DNA from: Callorhinchus milii
Taxonomy: Eukaryota
Reading direction: 5' to 3'
Assembly (NCBI RefSeq): GCF_018977255.1
Contig: NW_024704743.1
Coordinates: forward strand, 28,336,001-28,400,000
Length of the DNA: 64,000 nucleotides
In this document: positions 5,948 to 51,882 of the stretch, in pieces
How the letters are laid out: each line of letters begins with the position of its first letter
Numbering within the stretch: the first letter of the stretch is position 1
Notes under the pieces: model-generated
What the model was told of the DNA's origin: nothing
Databases searched by the model: none
The model's input: only the letters and a program-made list of their open reading frames with translations
Made by a program: the position numbers and the translations under genes

Positions 5948-6266
5948 CAACGAACCGAACCGAGTTTGGGCACCCAAAATATAGCTTGAATAAGGGAAGT
6001 AGGACTTGGGGAGAAAAAACAGCTGACTGGGGGTGTGGGGAGAAAGAGAGCGAGAGGGGGGCTGGAAGTGAGTGGGGTGAATGGGGGGGGTGGGGGCTGG
6101 TTTGCAGCAGTAAGAGTGAAGTGAGAGCAATCCCTGTTAAAACACTGGGTGTAAGAGTCTGGCAACGCAGGTCTTGTGTGTCCAGTCTGTCTGCTAAGGT
6201 TCACTGCCAAAGTAATAAACCCTGATCTCCACCTCTAGGAGGCGCCACAAGCATAGATTTTGGAAG

Positions 6267-6450
6267 CACACACATGCACACACCCACACACGTGTGCAAA
6301 CTCTCACATATATATGCACAGACACACACGTGTGCGCACACACACGCGCACATATACATAAGCACACACACACATGCACACACACATGCACACATATATA
6401 TATATATATGTGCATATGCATACATAAGGCACCCACATACACAACACAAA
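6267..6450. repeat. Compound (CA)n/(TA)n microsatellite
   Basis: Degenerate cacaca/tatata/catg runs. Confidence 0.85.
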
Positions 6451-6452
6451 CT

Positions 6453-7608
6453 GCACTGGGGTGGGGGGGGGTGCTGGGCTGCGGTGGGGGGTGCAGTGGG
6501 GGTGCAGGTGCTGGGGTGCAGTGGGGTGGGTGCAGTGGGGGGGGTGTGGGTGCTGGGGTGCAGTGGGGGGGGTGCAGTGCTGGGGTGCAGTGGGGGGGGG
6601 TGCAGTGGGGGGGGGTGCAGTGGGGGGAGTTCTGGGGTGCAGTGGGGGGGTGCAGTGGGGGGGTGCAGTGGGGGGGGGGGTGCAGTGCTGGGGTGCAGTG
6701 GGGGGGTGGGTGCTGGGGTGCAGTGGGGGTGTGCAGTGGGGGGGTGCAGTGGGGGGGGTGGGTGCTGGGGTGCAGTGGGGGGTGTGCAGTGGGGGGGGTG
6801 GGTGCTGGGGTGCAGTGGGGGGTGTGCAGTGGGGGGGGTGCAGTGGGTGGGTGCTGGGGTGCAGTGGGTGGGTGCTGGGGTGCAGTGCTGGGGTGCAGTG
6901 GGGGGGGTGCAGTGGGGGGGGTGCAGTGGGGGGGTGCAGTGGGTGCAGTGCTGGGGTGCAGTGGGGGGGTGCAGTGGGTGCAGTGCTGGGGTGCAGTGGG
7001 GGGGTGCAGTGGGTGCAGTGCTGGGGTGCAGTGGGGGGGTGCAGTGGGGGTGCAGGTGCTGGGGTGCAGTGGGGTGGGTGCTGGGGTGCAGTGGGGGGGG
7101 TGCAGTGCTGGGGTGCAGTGGGGGGGTGCAGTGCTGGGGTGCAGTGGGGGGGGTGCAGTGCTGGGGTGCAGTGGGGGGGGGAGTGCTGGGGTGCAGTGCT
7201 GGGGTGCAGTGGGGGGGTGCAGTGGGTGCAGTGCTGGGGTGCAGTGGGGGGGGGTGCAGTGCTGGGGTGCAGTGGGGGGGGGAGTGCTGGGGTGCAGTGG
7301 TGCAGTGGGGGGGGGTGCTGGGGTGCAGTGGGGGGGTGCAGTGGGGGGGGGTGCAGTGGGGGGGGTGCAGTGCTGGGGTGCAGTGGGGGGGGCAGTGCTG
7401 GGTGCAGTGGGGGGGGTGCAGTGGGGGGTGCAGGTGCTGGGGTGCAGTGGGGTGGGTGCTGGGGTGCAGTGGGGGGTGTGCAGTGGGTGCAGTGGGGGGG
7501 GGGTGCAGTGGGGGTGCAGTGCTGGGGTGCAGTGGGGGGGGGGGCAGTGCTGGGGTGCAGTGGGGGGGGGGCAGTGCTGGGGTGCAGTGCTGGGGTGCAG
7601 TGGGGGGG
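6453..7608 (+). repeat. G-rich minisatellite (GGGGTGCAGT[G/GCT] units) in TERT intron 1
   Basis: About 1.15 kb of variant GGGG(n)TGCAGT units read directly; G-runs of 4-11. Confidence 0.95.
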
Positions 7609-7612
7609 TTAC

Positions 7613-7875
7613 CTGCTGGTAGCTGGCGGCGGGGCTCAGGGGTTTGGTGTCCGGAGGGACACACACGAGGAGCAGCGACAGGAAGCGGCTGTAGCTCTCG
7701 GTGTCCGAGGCTCTCGACACAGCGGGAGCCCCCGCGCCCCCCGCAGCCCCCGCGCCCCCCGCAGCCCCGCAGCCCCCGCGCCCCCCGCCCCGAGCGCCGC
7801 CACGAACTGCTGCACCGTCTGCACCGCGGGGTACACCGAGCGGAGCAGCGGCAGCGGCCCCCGCGGCTCACACAT
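7613..7875 (-). CDS. TERT: TERT coding exon 1 (apparent 1-nt frameshift near 7765)
   Basis: ATG at 7875 gives MCEPRGPLPLLRSVYPAVQTVQQFVAALG (cf. human [20 protein letters not shown]). The 3' part, in another frame, reads SRASDTESYSRFLSLLLVCVPPDTKPLSPAASYQQ (cf. LVCVPWDARPPPAAPSFRQ). Donor CAG|gtaacc at 7613. Length 263 nt is one short of a codon multiple. Confidence 0.9.
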
Positions 7876-7930
7876 CCTCTCTCACTCACTCACTCACTCT
7901 CACTCTCACACTCACCGCAGCGCCCTCTAC
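7620..7930. promoter_or_regulatory. CpG island over TERT exon 1 and start site
   Basis: Very high GC and dense CpG in an otherwise CpG-poor background; (CTCA)n tract at about 7878-7915 just upstream of the ATG. Confidence 0.7.
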
Positions 7931-7949
7931 CGTCACTCACTGCACCTTT

Positions 7950-8545
7950 ACTCTCAACTCCCTCCTCCCTCTCCCCCCTCCTCACTCCCCCCTCCATCCC
8001 TCTCCTCACTCCCCCCCACTCCCCACTCCACCCCCTCCCCACTCCCCCTCCACCCCCTCCCCCACTCCCCACTCCACCCCCTCCCCCCCCCTCCACCCCC
8101 TCCCCACTCCTCCCCACTCCCCCACTCCCCCCATTCCTCACCCACTCCACCCCTCCCCCTCCTCACTCCACCCCCTCCTCACTCCTCCCTCCCACTCCCC
8201 CCTCCACCCTCCCACCCCATTCCCCCACCCACTTCACTCCTTCCCCACTCCCCCTCCCCTCACTCCCCACTCCTCCTCTCCACCCTCACTCCCCCTCCCC
8301 ACTCCCCCATCCCCCACTCCCATTCCCCTCCACCCTCACTCCCCCTCCCCACTCCCCCTCCTCCACCCCCACTCCCCTCCCCCACCCCCCCTCTCCACCC
8401 CCACTCCCCCATTCCCCCTCCATTCCCCACCCCACTCACCTCACTCCCCCTTACCCACTCCACCGTGCCCCCCACCACCTCACTCACCCACCCACCACCT
8501 CACTTCCCCCCCCCCCTCCACTCCCCACCACCTCACTCCCCCACC
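7950..8545. repeat. C-rich low-complexity minisatellite (CACTCCCC/CTCCACCC) directly upstream of TERT
   Basis: About 600 bp with almost no G on the + strand, so G-rich (GGGGAGTG) on the TERT sense strand. Confidence 0.9.
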
Positions 8546-8879
8546 GCGTTTCACCCACAAGATGTCCATCCAGTCAATACACTTTGCAGCCTACTCTGTG
8601 AAGCGCTTCGAGACGTCTCGAAGATGTGAAAAGCGCTATCTCAAAAGCAACGATTGTTATTATATTATTATTATTATTATAGTGGTGCAGAGAGTGGGGA
8701 ATGTGAATTAGCTAAGCTGAGGGCCAAGCAGAGGAGTGGGGTAGCAAGAGGTCAGAGAGATTAATGTCAGATGTGAATCCACTGTGGATTTTGTATGCGA
8801 GTGAGGGCGTTGAAATTAATCCTCTGGGAGAAAGGAAGCCAGTGGACTTAACGGTCGAACATAACGGTCCATCGGCAGA

Positions 8880-40091: not shown

Positions 40092-41030
40092 TCAGTGTCT
40101 GCACACCCCCAAACCCTTCTCCCCTCCCCTCAGTGTCTGCACACCCCCAAACCCTCCTCCCCTCCCCTCACAGTGTCTGCACACCCCCAAACCCTTCTCC
40201 CCTCCCCTCACACAGTGTCTGCACACCCCCAAACCCTTCTCCCTCAGTGTCTGCACACCCCCAAACCCTTCTCCCCTCCCCTCAGTGTCTGCACACCCCC
40301 AACTCTTTCTCCCTCAGTGTCTGCACACCCCCAACCCTTTCTCCCTCAGTGTCTGCACACCCCCAACCCTTTCTCCCTCAGTGTCTGCACACCCCACCCC
40401 TCTCCCCTCCTCACACAGTGTCTGCACACCCCCAAACCCTTCTCACCCCCTCACACAGTGTCTGCACACCCCCAAACCCCTCCCCCCCTCAGTGTCTGCA
40501 CACCCCCAACCCTTTCTCCCTCAGTGTCTGCACACCCCCAAACCCTTCTGCCCCCCCTCACACAGTGTCTGCACACCCCCAAAGCCTTCTCCCCTCCCCT
40601 CACACAGTGTCTGCACACCCCCAAACCCTCCTCCCCTCCCCTCACACAGTGTCTGCACCCCCAAACCCTCCCCCTCCTCACACAGTGTCTGCACACCCCC
40701 AAACCTCCTCCCCCCTCACACAGTGTCTGCACACCCCCCCCCCTCCTCCCCTCCCCTCACACAGTGTCTGCACACCCCCAAACCCTCCTCCCCTCCTCAC
40801 ACAGTGTCTGCACACCCCCAAACCCTCCTCCCCTCCCCTCACACAGTGTCTGCACACCCCCCCCCCCCCCCTCCTCACACAGTGTCTCCACACCCCCCCC
40901 CCCCCCCCCCCCACAGTGTCTGCACACCCCCAGACCCTTCTCCCCCTCTTAACACAGTGGTTGCACACCACCAACCGCTTCTCCCTCTCCCTTCAGTGTC
41001 TGCACACCCCCAACCCCGTCTCACACAGTG
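40092..41030. repeat. Minisatellite (cagtgtctgcacacccccaaacccttctcccct.., ~30-40-bp units)
   Basis: Roughly 25-30 variant units between the CLPTM1L CpG island and the ATG exon. Confidence 0.95.
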
Positions 41031-41350
41031 CCCGCACCCAGACACAGGCTCCGGTGCCCTCAGTCAGTGTGTGGCTGGTGTGGGGGTCGGTGTGCGGCGG
41101 CGCCTCTCCTCCTCCTCGGGCTCCATTGCTCTGAGCCTCTGTCGGCGCGCGAAAGAAGGAGACTTCCGCCCGGATGTGACCTCACAGAGGGGGGGAGAGG
41201 CGGAGAGGGGGAGGAGCCGACGGCGCGCATGCGCGACCCCCCCCGCTCCGCCCGTCAGTGAGAGACTGTGCGCGTGCGCAGTGTGGGAGCGACGCTGTGG
41301 ATCAGAAGCGGCCCCGAGACCGCGGGACCTCCCGACATGAGAGGCGCTGT
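41030..41350 (-). promoter_or_regulatory. CLPTM1L CpG-island promoter with NRF1 and ETS motifs
   Basis: CpG-dense. NRF1-type palindrome CGCGCATGCGCG at 41224-41235 and TGCGCGTGCGCA at 41269-41280; ETS core ACTTCCG at 41162-41168; GC box ccgccc. Typical housekeeping promoter set. Confidence 0.75.
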
Positions 41351-41370
41351 TACACACATCACCTCAGTTA

Positions 41371-42470
41371 CCCCCTCACACCCCAACCGCACCCTCACCC
41401 CCCAACCCCTCACCCCCCAAAACCCCCCAACCCCTCACCTCCTCACCCCCCCACCCCTCACCCCCTCAGCCCCCAACCCCTCACCCCCCCCAACCCCCTC
41501 ACCCCCAACACCCCCCAACCCTCACCCCCCACCCCCTCACCCCCCTCACCCCTCACCCCCCAACACCCTCACCCCCCCTCACCCCCCAACCCCTCACCCC
41601 CCAACCCCTCACCCCCTCACCCCCAACCCCCAACCCTCACCCCTCACCCCCAACACCCCCAACCCCTCACCCCCAACACCCCCAACCCCCAACCCCTCAC
41701 CCCCCAACACCCCAACCCCTCACCCCCAACCCCTCACCCCCCAACACCCCCAACCCCCAACCCCTCACCCCCCAACACCCCCCAACACCCACCAACCCCT
41801 CACCCCCCACCCCCCAACACCCCCCAACCCCCCAACCCCCAACCCCCACCCCCCAACACCCCCCAACCCCTCACCCCCCAACCCCCCACCCCCAACCCCT
41901 CACCCCCAACACCCCCAACCCCCAACCCCTCACCCCCCAACCCCCCAACCCTCACCCCCCCAACCCTTCACACCCCAACCCCACCCCCCAACCCCACCCC
42001 CAACCCCACCCTCACCCCCAACCCCACCCTCACCCCCAACCCCTCACACCCCACCCTCACACCCCAACCCCACCCCCCAACCCCACCCTCACCCCCAACC
42101 CCACCCTCACCCCAACCCCTCACACCCCACCCTCACACCCCAACCCCACCCCCCAACCCCACCCTCACCCCCAACCCCCCCAACACCACCCCCCAACCTC
42201 ACCCACACCCCCCAACCCCACCCCCCAACCCCACCCTCACCCCCCAACCCCACCCTCACCCCCTCACCCTCACCCCCCAACCCCACCCTCACCCCTCACC
42301 CCCAACCCCTCATCCCCAACCCCCACCCTCAACCCCAGCCTCACCCCCTCCCCCCCCCACCCCCTCACCCCCCACCCTCACCCCCCAACCCCACCCCCCA
42401 ACTCCAAACCCCACCCACCCATTTCCCCCCTCCCTCCCCCCACCCCCCCAACACCACCCCCCACCCCCCA
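41371..42470. repeat. C/A-rich low-complexity tract built from CCCTCA and CCCCAA hexamer-like units
   Basis: About 1.1 kb, almost no G on the + strand. Confidence 0.92.
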
Positions 42471-42540
42471 ATTTGCCAGATACTGTATGTCACCTTAAAT
42501 TGTTGGAACTGCATGACTGGGAGAACAGACTCATCTCAGA

Positions 42541-46075: not shown

Positions 46076-48176
46076 TTAAAAACAAATACCATTTTTGATC
46101 TCGTGCTCTAGATTTTCCAGATCTTCATTACTTCTCACATTGCTGGATTCAACCGTATTTTCACCTATTGCTGACACATTAGGATGTGCCACCTCTAATA
46201 ATACCATAGATTCATATTTCTCTGAGGGTATAATCAAAGTGGTAGGACCATCATCCTTTGTATTATGTACTATTTGCCCTTTTACATTGTATCTTTCATT
46301 TGTATCTTTAGTGAAGGTATGTTCGTCGACATTCTTAACTGCATTGCTTACAGACTTTGTAAAATTCTCTGTGGATAATCCTTGACCATCTGTTTCAGTC
46401 ATTTCTAAGACCAGCTTTTCTTCATTAGGAACATTTGACTCTACTGAAAGAGAGCTGGTATACAGATTTCCTGAGTGCAATGTTTCTCCAGGCACTCCCA
46501 TTGCTGTTGTGACCGACTCATCTTTCTCCATAATCTTAAATATATTGTCCAAATTGGATGGTGTGTTGCTCTGGATGCAAGTGTCCAAGTCCAGCAAAAA
46601 ATGAACTTTTTTGCCAGGTTTAATAACATTCTCCTTTCCAACATATACGGTTTTCTCTTCAGAATTCTGAAGCTGCAGTGACCTATTTTGCTTCAACTCT
46701 TTTTCTTCCTTACATTCAGTCTCCCAAATTTTATCCACTGATTTCTCCTGACATTTAGCAGGCTGATTTAATTGTGTTTTTTCTTCTTGATCATCTGCTT
46801 TCACAAAGGAGGATTGTGGCTGCTTTGTTTCATATTCTGCATCCCAGTCTTCTTCACAAGCAACATCTTTTGTGGCAAAGAGTGTCTTCCCTTTAAATAA
46901 AGTGGGAGCAATTTTGGCACCACTATTTTCTCTTGTGTGCTCCGCTTGTTGCATGGTATCAGAGTGCCCTCTCTTCTGCTGCCAGCTGCCTCCAGCAATC
47001 CCTGACCAACGAGGTTGCTTGGATGATGAAAATGAATCTTGGCTGGAGAATGACGAGTTTTCTTCTTGACTTCTCTTCCTGTTTCCAAAATCTGATCTGA
47101 ATGATCTTTCTCTGCTAAAAGTACTCCCTCCGCTCTGATCTCCTCCACCTGCCCTCCAGCAATTGGAATTTGGACCACCATTATACTTTCCGTTGGTCCT
47201 ACCAACATTCCTCTGTTGCCATTCAGTTCCATCATTTTGACCGTTTTTCCAGTTTCCAGAGCTTCTCTGAGGTGAAGCATTCCTCAAATCATTTCTTGAG
47301 AAAGAAGCCCTTGATTGACTAAAGCTACCATTTCGCCTTTCAGTGCAGGAAGTCTCACCTTGGGTCTCCATCGATTTAGGATCATCCCATTTTTGTGTTC
47401 CAGTGCTGGATTGTAAAAAGCTGTTCTGTTTCCATCTTCTCTCTGGAGAGATTGTTTCCTGATATCTATTGACAACCTGACCAGCATTACCGTAATTCTG
47501 ACTTTGTACTGGCTTCATCTGACTAGGATAAGACCCTGTGCTATAAGTTACATTATTCGGATATACAGCACCTGTGGAATTCTGTTGCTGATTCACACAT
47601 ATAGGTACTGAACCATGGCCAACTGCAGTAGGTGTTCCCCTGTAACAGCAACAGGAGGTCTGAGGTATGTGGCCACAAGGGCTGGTGCTGATATTTCTAC
47701 ATGTGGCTGAACTGCACTGACCTCCAAAGCAAGAAACCTGTGGAATCATATTATAAGGACTCATAACAGCATGATTCAGCAAATAGGCAAGAACATCCAG
47801 ACGTATGGGCACAGTGACTGAAGATAAGTTCCCTGCTTTCTGAAGGGAGTTGCCCAATACTGAAGGCTGCATGTCTTTCTGAGTGGATCCCGGAAGTATT
47901 TGAGTTTCCAATGCACGATTTGTGATTCCACCAGAGCTCATTACAGTATTAGGATTACTCATAAAAGAGGATGTCTTTTTCAAGATAGAACTGGTTTCGA
48001 TGTCCTTCCTTCGATGGTTCTCTCCCTTGTGAAGACCTACCACAGCATTATTGTGGCTTGAACTGGGCTCTGAGGTGGCTGTTATTTCACTGGATCCACT
48101 AGGGGCAGTTCCCACGGCTGTCATGCTAATCATTTCTGACTTCACTTTAGCATGTGCATTTTGAGAATCTTGTATA
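46076..48176 (-). CDS. Large terminal coding exon of an uncharacterised, mostly disordered protein
   Basis: 2.1-kb stop-free frame in non-repetitive AT-rich DNA. Acceptor tttttacattacag|T at 48176 (phase 2) is in frame with ORF 46076..48145. No transposon motifs recognised. Confidence 0.82.
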
Positions 48177-48519
48177 CTGTAATGTAAAAAGTAAAAGTAT
48201 TGTTGGTTTTATTACAGTACATTTACATTAGATTGGGCAATTGTTTGGATTTAACACTATGCAAAAGAATTCATTGAGCACAAAATGTTCACAGCCTACT
48301 AAAAGTGTATGTTTATGATACTATAAAGCTTTCACTGTATGGAAAGTTACTTCTTGAGCTTTAGCATTAATCAGATATATCAAATGGAGAAAAGTGCTAA
48401 CAATCTAAGAAAATTCTACAGTCAATTCACTTTACAATATATTCTATGAAGCGCTTTGAGGTGGCTAAAAGATATGAAAAGCGCTATATCAACTGCAAGG
48501 AATATTATTATTATAAAAT

Positions 48520-48652
48520 GGTGGGGTCCCACACTGGAAGCCCCCCCAAAATAGCAGCATGTCAGAGAAATGTGGCCATAAGGGCTAATATTTCTACATG
48601 TTTCTATGCTGCATTGGCAAGACAGTTGTGGAATTATATTATGAGGACTCAT
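48520..48652 (-). pseudogene. Diverged partial duplicate of the Cys-rich segment of the 46076-48176 exon
   Basis: MSPHNIIPQLSCQCSIETCRNISPYGHISLTCCYFGGASSVGPH vs parent MSPYNMIPQVSCFGGQCSSATCRNISTSPCGHIPQTSCCCYRGTPTAVGHG (about 47614-47764). Confidence 0.75.
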
Positions 48653-50494
48653 GACTTTAGCAATTTTAAAATAATTAATTTGTTCTATTAATATAATCCT
48701 GAATTGGTAAACTTTTACCTATTCAAAATATACTTGCAAACTTGGCTATTATTTTAAAGTTTTTTTTTGCTGTCCACATTTCAAATGTATTTTAAATGTT
48801 TTTAAAATCACTGCTCCCTCCCTCCCTCCCTCCCAACAAACAAACAAACAAACAAACAGTAAAGTCAATGTCCTATATGTGCTACATCACAAAAAAAAAT
48901 AATTTGGTCACTCAATCCATGACTGTTTGTGGGACACTGCTGTGCGCAAATGGCTGACGCATTTCGCCCACAAAAATATAGTCAATTAACTTTGCAATAT
49001 ATTCTGTGAAGCTCTTTGAGACGTCTCGAAGATGTGATAAGGCGATGTATCAAATGCAAGGATTATTATTATGACAGCATGACCAACAAACAGGCAGTGT
49101 AATGTTTTCTGGTGCATTTCTTTTTATGTCCTCATTCCTACTCTGAAATATACTCCCCTTTCCAACCTTCGGATGTTTGTCCTATCTGAACCTTATATCT
49201 GTATGAAATGTCCTGCTTCATTTGTGTCTCACTGTACTAACCCTAAGTGTACCTGACTAGTATTCTCTTCAGCATTCCTCCACTGCTCCCCAATGACCGC
49301 GTGTTTGAAGCCTTGCTGCTTTATTCAAATATATATGTTCCACTCAAATTACTATTGTCAATGCCCATTCTCACACTGGGTCACTCATAGTTTATATTCA
49401 TCTAATATTGTACTGGATTTAATGACTCACCTCTTTAGCACTCCAGATCCTACCCAGTGTGAAGAGCCTACAGTTTATAAATGCTGCTGTTCTTGGCTTC
49501 CTACTGCAGTTCTCACCTTGAGACCATCTCACCACCATCCTTATCTCAAACCAGATCTGCCACATGAAATTCTAATGGGAAGAAGTTTCACCTGGGTCTA
49601 GATATACTCTTTTTTTATGTAGAGTTTCGGAGCTTCAGGAATTTGGCAAATTCTCAAATGCAGCCTTAATTTCGGAGATGATACTCTTCTTTTAAGAATC
49701 ACTGAAAACCGACTTCAAAGTTAAAACTGAATTCAGCCATTTGCCAAATTCTGAACGCTCCAGAATAGAGTAAGAGTCCAGATGGATTTTCTCATCAATT
49801 ATAATTTTTGAGAAAATTAAACAATAATTAGACTTGCATTTCATATAGCGCCTTATCACGTTGTCAAAACATCTCAAACAACTATATGTGAACCTATATT
49901 ACACATTTACAGCTCTCAGGCAATAGTAGAACACACATTATTTCCTTCTTTGTTATTTCTTCTGAATGTCAATATTACCTACTTAGAAAACGCTTTAACA
50001 ACTTTGTTTCAAAAGATGAAAATTAAAAGAATTACACTTAGCTCAAAAGATTTTATTCACACCAGAAAAACAATAATATTCTGTGAGTTAGCAAAATCTT
50101 ACTCGAAATGAATTAAATTCACTCACAGAGATTTTGCATCAATTTTCTCTTAGTTGCAACTCAAATCCCAACATCACTAAAATGTGAACGTTTCTGAGAA
50201 CATCATTTCTAACATTTCTTCCAAAAATGTACCACATCTATCTGAAACACTGGGAAGTGTTAAACTTCCCTTTCCCCTGCGGCTATGCTTTTAGAAATGC
50301 ATAAATCTTTAAAAAATGAACACATGTAAAATCGACCTTTTGGGCTTAAATATTTACAAGATGATATAAACTATGCAAAATTCCAACTAACATTTGCAGT
50401 ACAGTGCTGCACCTTACACCAACTCTCACGTTTCCTCCTTTAGCTGGTTTCACCCTGTGTTTTGGGTGAGGTTTGTGACCCCCCCAAGTCTTAC

Positions 50495-50535
50495 CCTTCT
50501 TTAAGTGTTGAATTCTCTCCTCTCTGCAGTTCCAT
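50495..50535 (-). CDS. Candidate first coding exon of the uncharacterised gene (MELQRGENSTLKEG)
   Basis: ATG at 50535 (+4 G), in-frame stop upstream, donor GG|gtaaga at 50495 in phase 2 matching the 48176 acceptor; gives a 713-aa product. Confidence 0.5.
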
Positions 50536-51882
50536 CCAGATCTCTGGCACCAGCCACCACTTCTCCTCTCACATTGACCATCACCTGCAGTCGCACCAGC
50601 AGCTCCAGGTTGTAATGATGAGATCAGCTCAGCCTCAGCACCAGTGAGTAGCACAGGTTTCTCTCCAGGATGCCACAAGCATCCAGTGAGGTTTGGGGAT
50701 AGAACAGACGCACTATTTCGGACCACACCCAAACCAGATGAGAAAATAGTTCAGGTACTGTACTGGACAGGGATGTTGAGTTAACTGTTGTTACAATGAT
50801 CAGGTATGTTTCTCTGATCTGTGTAAATGTGTGTTGTGCTTATTCTATAAATACTGAAGGTTGGATGAGTTAAATAAATACAATGTTAGTGTGGAATTAT
50901 TTGTTATTCTTATATCCGATTTTATTCTCAAAGCCCCTTCCTTGCCTTGGGTTCAGTGGCACAATTTTGGGGTGATATTCCATTCCAGTTTTTGTTCAGT
51001 TTTTGCATTCAAGCTGCAAAGGAAAGTTTGTTCAGCAGCAACATCTCAGCTGTTTGCAATCCTGCTTTTATTCTGCTTCAGTTTTATTTCATTTGCAGAT
51101 AGAATCAACTGCTTCCAGTCACACACTTCAGATGTGTTAAAATAAAACACAATTTCATAAGACAGTTTTATTGTTAAAGATACTTTATTTTTGACTTCCT
51201 TAACAGGAAAAGTAACATTAAGCAAAAACACATTCCATTCGATCAGTTATTTTGAAAATTAACTAAAATATTAATTAGACCCTACCTCATTTTGCATGCA
51301 AACTACATGAAACTGCTCCACAGATTTCACATTGATAAATGTTTTTTTCATTATACAGAATATTTTTACAAAAAAAGGATTTCCTGATCAGACAATAATT
51401 GTTGTTATGGTTATTTAATATGAATACAAATAATATTCTCAAAAAGTTGAATAGAAAACTAGCTCACTCGCAAAGTTATGCCATGAATCAGCAGCAACAT
51501 TTTTTTTTTAAATGCACTGCACAAAGCTGAGTAAAATTAAACTGAATTCTCAAAAATATTCCACTGGGCACTTAGCAATTGCAGTATTCCGATTCATTTT
51601 ACTGGTTAAAACAAAGCACCATTGTAGTTTGTGTGTAATGTTAATAATTTCAATGTGCCATAAAGCCAATGTCTTCCAAGCAATTTCTTAGCATAAATGG
51701 TAGACACTATTATGTTTATTTCGGCCATATAAAAAAAGAATAAAATGTACACGTGGCTGTGCTATTTAAAACAAACCGCACGCTCAGATTATCGGCTTCC
51801 ACCACAACTGTATAAATTCATTTAAAATAGGACTATTTAGCATATTGTAATAACAAAAATAAATTCTGTTGGAGGGGCTGCT

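Follow-up and report, generated by a model that had tools for sequence, protein, structure and literature searches.

The stretch of DNA discussed here comprises 64,000 nucleotides (nt) from the elephant shark, Callorhinchus milii (contig NW_024704743.1 of assembly GCF_018977255.1, positions 28,336,001 to 28,400,000 of the forward strand), and is referred to below as the window. Its minus strand harbors a two-exon gene, composed of coding exons of 41 nt and 2,101 nt, which encodes a protein of 713 residues with zero internal stops. Sequence comparisons place this protein in the family of C19orf84 and make it very likely the orthologue; in mammals, C19orf84 is a fertility factor through which the recognition of transposons by small RNAs is coupled to DNA methylation.

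The first coding exon (50495..50535) starts with ATG and is composed of 13 codons plus 2 nt, ending at a phase-2 donor (GG/GTAAGA). The predicted intron (48177..50494; 2,318 nt, GT..AG) contains repeats, and the second coding exon (46076..48176), the length of which includes the TAA stop codon, lies within a stop-free frame of 710 codons. At 41% GC content the probability of 700 open codons by chance is ~6e-20. In the acceptor of exon 2, 14 of 18 positions before the AG are pyrimidines, more than at any other AG in the list of 25 that covers 48260 to 47900. Exon 1 is the best match in all 64 kb to the N-terminal 60 residues of a relative from catshark (P0007; 8 of 14 residues identical, E 0.064). 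The catshark proteins open with an equivalent Met mini-exon, and an isoform from Scyliorhinus torazame (P0005) is likewise built from a short exon followed by a long one. A contig from a second C. milii sequencing run spans 46752-48444 with two substitutions and no gaps relative to the window. The gene model proposed in an earlier note on this DNA, i.e., a 2.1-kb exon with a good acceptor and a phase-compatible 41-nt ATG exon, is thus borne out by the frame, the acceptor and the catshark N-terminus, and the gene is confirmed to be real and intact. Splicing of the exon into a MARVELD3-like transcript, which that note had also considered, left no sign: contigs over the neighboring MARVEL-type exons end at 51233 and 51330, and the shark relatives begin with the equivalent Met exon.

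A transposon open reading frame (ORF) was considered as an alternative origin and is ruled out, as Pfam identifies no transposon domain and the depth of a DNA-like run over the exon does not reach that of repeats. Catshark isoforms P0001 and P0007 differ from P0005 by a 34-residue insert just after exon 1; a sequence search of the window intron found no counterpart of this insert of catshark isoform X1.

Architecture of the encoded protein

An AlphaFold2 model based on 20 sequences contains a single helix, at residues 126-142 of exon 2 (predicted local confidence, pLDDT, ~88), with which a model based on four sequences concurs. In the former, the pLDDT is below 50 at 584 of 699 residues, which bears out the earlier reading of the protein as disordered. 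The helix belongs to a conserved core (47750..47824, minus strand as for all features of this gene; residues ~132-156), supported by the Pfam match, the alignment and AlphaFold2, which also holds the motif of the C19orf84 family (PF17703). Eight of the nine invariant columns in an alignment of 20 sequences fall within or just before the helix, and the pattern of the core motif is found in all 21 family proteins examined. As modelled, the core helix is likely a partner-binding helix.

Behind the helix is a Cys/His-rich stretch (47633..47737), where eight Cys are found within 90 residues after the hydrophobic motif. The relatives are Cys-rich in this region as well: all 20 full-length proteins counted have 5-10 Cys within 90 residues after the helix, at variable spacing and with no predicted fold. 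It is followed by a basic tract (46976..47434; net charge +11) composed to 56% of Ser, Gly, Asn, Gln and Arg, which holds seven spaced Trp of the nine in the whole protein. Six of these seven, and eight of all nine, have a Trp counterpart in 9-15 of the 16 tetrapod rows aligned. Conservation of the tract extends from the chimaera as far as frogs; its length is ~290-330 residues in sharks and amphibians, compared to 190-260 in reptiles. According to the alignments, a basic RKR patch at 47069..47083, which may serve as a nuclear-import signal, is retained in sharks, salamanders, caecilians and turtle.

Further toward the C-terminus, the acidic motif EEDWDAEYE (46829..46855, at residue 458 of 713) is likely a second, putative binding motif. 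The pattern [ED][DN]W[ED]xx[YC] is found in 20 of 21 family proteins, often in two copies; the Trp is kept in 15 of 16 tetrapod rows, and the local pLDDT climbs to 65. The second copy in the shark protein (46712..46732) is degenerate, is aligned to a full copy in catsharks, salamanders and turtle, and has Trp in 9 of the 16 tetrapod rows. The acidic tail (46079..46657; net charge -15 over residues 521-713) is disordered (pLDDT < 50), poorly conserved and variable in length among relatives. All motifs listed in the earlier note, i.e., the hydrophobic motif, the Cys cluster, the spaced Trp, EEDWDAEYE and the acidic tail, are present.

The same note had likened the protein to GW182 and the EEDW motif to the termini of Vasa. 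With GW182/TNRC6 and Vasa, the shark protein shares disorder, spaced Trp in polar sequence and an acidic Trp motif. The likeness to GW182/TNRC6 fails because the region from helix to acidic motif contains zero GW or WG repeats and there is no Ago-hook, UBA or RRM match in Pfam at E <= 1. That to Vasa/DDX4 fails because the acidic Trp motif is internal and found family-wide, and Pfam identifies no helicase domain.

Relationship to C19orf84

The sole Pfam family identified for exon 2 is PF17703 (C19orf84), at E 1.7e-5 and 25.1 bits over a short match of ~50-60 residues; for a 96-residue core these values are E 7.8e-7 and 29.5 bits. A word-index search singled out four proteins among 7,885 candidates, one from Scyliorhinus canicula and three from salamanders, all three bearing PF17703. 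Exon 2 and the S. canicula protein P0001 are 43% identical over 98% of exon 2. The elasmobranch relatives, i.e., LOC119965835 (S. canicula), XP_072366042-45 (S. torazame) and LOC122564297 (Chiloscyllium plagiosum), share an equivalent first exon and 42-43% identity over nearly the full length (~690 residues in the catsharks), but all are annotated as "uncharacterized". A model from Chiloscyllium punctatum (P0018, 299 residues) has neither the core helix nor the greater part of the Trp tract held by C. plagiosum P0009, which may stem from a gap in the assembly or annotation or from a true deletion.

The link to a named gene is provided by the axolotl protein P0004 (XP_069460919.1), which is 32% identical to the shark protein over 380 columns (BLASTP, E 1e-28). 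Its length of 931 residues fits that of the published axolotl C19ORF84 (AMEX60DD015896), the coding sequence of which is composed of 20 + 2,776 nt (931 codons and the stop codon), is split by a phase-2 intron and is labelled with the caecilian LOC115081739 (PMC7618676, Dataset EV1). The two were equated by this exact length and the common caecilian label; the caecilian protein itself (P0029) is found in the recovered family, at E 2e-30 to exon 2. The axolotl and shark genes share a tiny first coding exon, a phase-2 intron and one large second exon, and in both proteins the order is helix, Cys-rich stretch, Trp tract, RKR patch, two acidic Trp motifs and acidic tail, while they differ in length (931 and 713 residues) and their tails are unrelated. 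A turtle protein named "C19orf84 homolog" by NCBI (Mauremys P0021) matches exon 2 in a pairwise comparison at E 1e-13. With the mammalian protein (PF17703, "piRNA-mediated silencing protein") the likeness resides in the core, at Pfam positions ~30-90, whereas the shark protein has ~3.5 times the length of the Pfam model.

A profile of the core, built from the window protein, one catshark and two salamanders, was searched against 1.84 billion proteins and yielded 22 at E <= 0.001. The named relatives (n = 19) are from three sharks, two salamanders, two caecilians, six frogs, three turtles and three squamates. This shark-salamander profile recovers the NCBI turtle "C19orf84 homolog" at E 9e-10 and also a mammal-type fragment of 103 residues, which scores 99.8 bits on PF17703. 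As a control for circularity, profiles made without sharks were run against the complete set of 1,216 window ORFs, and each singled out the ORF of this gene. The amniote-only profile gave 82.6 bits (next ORF, 4.7; best shuffled or reversed control, 16.1), that of turtle and mammal-type sequences 53.0 bits against 12.0 for the best control, and the all-tetrapod profile 206.1 bits against 53.1, where the 1,001 controls comprised 1,000 locally shuffled copies and the reversed sequence.

A low-complexity protein of other descent might match C19orf84 fortuitously, through a single short helix, and the region recognized by the Pfam model, which is trained on mammals, indeed spans only ~50-60 residues and scores below the cut-off. 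The profile scores far exceed those of the shuffles, and an unbroken chain leads from shark via amphibian and reptile to the mammal type, with a common motif order and intron phase; chance likeness is already largely refuted and appears extremely improbable. Common descent is also reflected in a tree of 20 cores, which agrees with the species tree. Here, the chimaera branches as sister to the remaining four shark-like sequences, five of five groups are monophyletic (bootstrap 97-100) and Ascaphus is outermost among the frogs. The tree omits P0018, P0020, P0022, P0024 and P0025, which are partial or without one motif, and contains no mammal and no outgroup.

Several observations weigh against orthology. 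Exon 2, at 25.1 bits, does not reach the PF17703 gathering score of 40 bits, and the shark protein exceeds the 200-position model by 500 residues. The profile search recovered no full-length mammalian protein, only the 103-residue fragment, and the similarity to the mammal type is limited to the core; nor did it recover a named relative from coelacanth, lungfish or crocodilians, though PIWIL4 is present there, which leaves the correspondence with the distribution of PIWIL4 incomplete. In addition, the genomic surroundings of tetrapod relatives differ from those in the window. Assuming in each case that a single assembly underlies the records, the axolotl relative is found on a 1,522-Mb contig and TERT on one of 1,387 Mb, while in Rhinatrema the corresponding contigs are of 83 Mb and 826 Mb; a frog relative is filed under LIM2. 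The gathering score is likewise unmet by the axolotl protein (30.4 bits) and by the turtle proteins named by NCBI (32.1 and 33.6). Among 19 family proteins scanned with PF17703, 15 match at E <= 0.01, one of these, the mammal-type fragment, above the cut-off, and the four missed are three squamates and the C. punctatum model without the core. Because only the mammal-type fragment passes, the cut-off marks the mammalian branch.

The profile search found no named relative from ray-finned fish or birds either, but because it missed nearly all mammals, and hence tends to lose members that are short and divergent, these blanks are weak evidence, suggestive at most. A search with residues 95-155 for shorter relatives gave one candidate and none at E <= 10, a sequence search of the PDB identified no relative (best E 0.13), and the ESM Atlas returned two unrelated matches (0.76) for exon 2 and nothing usable for the axolotl core.

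Two statements of the earlier note do not stand in light of these data. It had recognized no family, which is contradicted by the PF17703 match, the homology to the axolotl protein and the scores of the shark-free profiles; a match to a characterized protein, named by that note as refuting its reading, has thereby been obtained. It had also suggested a lineage-restricted gene, yet the family reaches amphibians, reptiles and the mammal type, with the human gene on chromosome 19 and the turtle gene on chromosome 20 (PMC7618676, Dataset EV1). The gene is not a new kind of scaffold. What is new is an early-branching member of a known family, which contradicts the published absence of C19orf84 in elephant shark.

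Genomic neighborhood and copy number

The gene shares the window with TERT, an exon of which (5003-2721) shows 99.7% identity with C. milii XP_007887823.1 across 761 residues, and with a downstream gene that we take to be CLPTM1L. This location differs from the chromosome 19-type locus of mammalian C19ORF84 and raises the question of whether the true orthologue is found elsewhere in the genome, the copy beside CLPTM1L being a relocated paralogue that has drifted in function. Such a relocation would be consistent with the position of tetrapod relatives, including that of axolotl, off the TERT contig and with that of the bamboo-shark relative on a 49-Mb contig; for C. milii, the search for further copies covered the window and protein records. 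However, the tree requires no duplication and the branch of the window gene is short (0.29, median 0.32), and neither the word-index nor the profile protein search identified a second C. milii family member. A relocated paralogue is thus considered quite improbable, and the gene in the window is preferred as the orthologue. It is no retrocopy, because the intron is retained. In an attempt at synteny, no TERT from S. canicula or Chiloscyllium was found among the 120 of 219 TERT matches listed.

In Rhinatrema bivittatum, two near-identical family proteins are found, P0011 (LOC115076287, on the 83-Mb contig) and P0029 (LOC115081739, on a 0.4-Mb contig), which may represent a recent duplicate or an unplaced haplotype. 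Family proteins P0017 and P0033 of Pseudophryne corroboree are annotated as isoforms of "lens fiber membrane intrinsic protein". This annotation probably reflects a mis-merged LIM2 gene model, which would also mark the tetrapod neighborhood; LIM2 is presumably the human neighbor of C19orf84.

Two single-exon frames of MARVEL-type tetraspan proteins are found on the minus strand at 57914-57243 and 52578-51883. They are 36% identical to each other, the latter matches Pfam MARVEL at E 9e-5, and contigs from the runs guessed to be RNA (see below) cover both. They are presumably similar to the pair of alternative terminal exons of MARVELD3 and lie, in the window, next to CLPTM1L and TERT. Within the first introns of TERT and the CLPTM1L-like gene, and in their upstream regions, long simple-repeat tracts (6200-8700 and 40100-42500) are C-rich or G-rich and show strong GC skew.

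Expression, proposed role and age of the family

In axolotl, C19ORF84 is gonad-restricted, with values of 0.42-21.5 in nine gonad samples and at most 0.23 in 32 somatic samples. By analogy with this counterpart, the shark gene is probably a germline gene. The earlier guess of a germline protein was thus right in direction. Of 12 C. milii runs listed for the gene, none of them recorded as RNA, four were mapped to the window; the three guessed to be RNA gave depths of 0-2 over repeat-free bins of the coding exon and one 211-nt contig (46234-46444); in two of the three, the depth over the MARVEL-type exon was ~50-77. With tissue labels missing and splice joints swamped by repeats, these runs are uninformative either way for the gene, and the 50495-48176 junction was not seen in them.

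The gene might be silent or dying, i.e., its expression might have been lost, in line with the unseen junction and with the lack of a C. milii protein for this gene among the word-index or profile search matches. Against this reading stand 713 open codons with intact splice sites, a frame that is also open in the contig from the second run, and the identity to catsharks noted above. Loss of expression therefore seems very improbable, and an active germline gene is the preferred reading.

Mouse C19ORF84 is reportedly mostly disordered with one helix, through which SPOCD1 is bound, and the contact is said, in work of Zoch from 2024, to be helix to helix. One report describes mouse C19ORF84 as a nuclear, euchromatic protein that binds SPOCD1 directly (PMC7618654), and another describes it as necessary for SPOCD1's association with DNMT3L (PMC13757620). 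In a 2025 survey, elephant shark was scored with PIWIL4, TEX15, SPIN1 and DNMT3A (PMC7618676), and methylated transposons in elephant-shark liver are described in PMC5437953. By analogy with the mammalian family, the shark C19orf84 orthologue is probably a disordered germ-cell nuclear adaptor of the PIWIL4 transposon-silencing pathway, and a role with nuclear PIWI-interacting RNA (piRNA) in C. milii is, by the same analogy, somewhat favored. In such an adaptor, the RKR patch would import the protein into the nucleus and the core helix would fold on a SPOC-type scaffold, which may be an unrecognized shark SPOCD1 or a PHF3/DIDO-type forerunner. The acidic Trp motif may bind a second partner, from either the methylation or the PIWIL4 arm, and the basic Trp tract may contribute weak RNA or protein contacts.

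Against this role stands the fact that SPOCD1, DNMT3B and DNMT3L were scored absent in elephant shark (PMC7618676). Because SPOCD1 and DNMT3L, known partners of the mammalian protein, are among these, the mouse mechanism is not transferable as it stands. The axolotl differs in this respect from elephant shark, as it has both SPOCD1 and DNMT3L (PMC7618676), and PMC11499256 places the origin of SPOCD1 at coelacanth. Moreover, the rank correlations of axolotl C19ORF84 with PIWIL4 (0.45) and SPOCD1 (0.52) over the nine gonad samples are not significant. One tentative solution, of low probability, is that a nuclear silencing module of PIWIL4 and C19orf84 predates SPOCD1 and DNMT3L, such that in cartilaginous fish the helix and the acidic Trp motifs would reach chromatin or DNMT3A via an older partner.

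Alternatively, the long form of sharks and amphibians may have had an older task, as a germ-granule or condensate scaffold of the kind put forward in the earlier note, acting via its Trp and arginine-glycine tract, the link to methylation having come later with SPOCD1 and DNMT3L. The absence scored for these two proteins in elephant shark, the almost complete disorder of the protein, and the conservation of the Trp tract from chimaera to frogs, with its greater length in sharks and amphibians than in reptiles, would fit such a scaffold. Yet the best-conserved part is the helix common to the mammalian family rather than the Trp tract, which contains no GW or WG repeats; named relatives are missing where nuclear PIWIL4 was lost, although cytoplasmic PIWIs persist there; and the absences scored in the survey (PMC7618676) are unreliable for C19orf84 in Xenopus, newt and shark. 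We consider this older task unlikely and favor the nuclear adaptor.

The unreliability of these scores becomes apparent when the survey is compared with the family recovered here. The survey described C19orf84 as first present in axolotl, recorded no such gene for elephant shark, newt, frogs or lizard, and assigned the complete set of nuclear piRNA and DNA-methylation factors to the early tetrapods (PMC7618676). Two species for which it had recorded absence, Pleurodeles waltl and Xenopus laevis, nevertheless yielded relatives here, as did other frogs and squamates (P0003, P0014, P0015, P0023, P0026 and P0027), and three squamate family proteins escape Pfam entirely. In the literature, no earlier report of a shark C19orf84 was found beyond the absence score of the survey, in a search that extended to journals outside subscription, and six identifiers of elasmobranch relatives were absent from the full texts searched. 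In the lungfish sheets of Dataset EV1, the best match is a "DNMT3B-like" Callorhinchus milii protein, yet DNMT3B is scored absent in elephant shark (PMC7618676), a further absence that merits a recheck.

The intact gene in elephant shark, together with the relatives in sharks, newt, six frogs and three squamates, moves the origin of C19orf84 to the jawed-vertebrate ancestor; on these sequence comparisons, the family likely dates to this ancestor, i.e., the node where PIWIL4 arose. Because the family was found where it had been scored absent, absences of fast-evolving disordered factors are unreliable, and those of SPOCD1 and DNMT3L in sharks merit a profile-based recheck. The finding also raises the question of which partner is used by shark C19orf84. 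If the PIWIL4-C19orf84 module is true, piRNA-directed transcriptional silencing would be a jawed-vertebrate rather than a tetrapod invention. The few residues kept from chimaera to reptiles, i.e., those of one helix and one acidic Trp motif, are direct candidates for mutagenesis of a gene implicated in human infertility.

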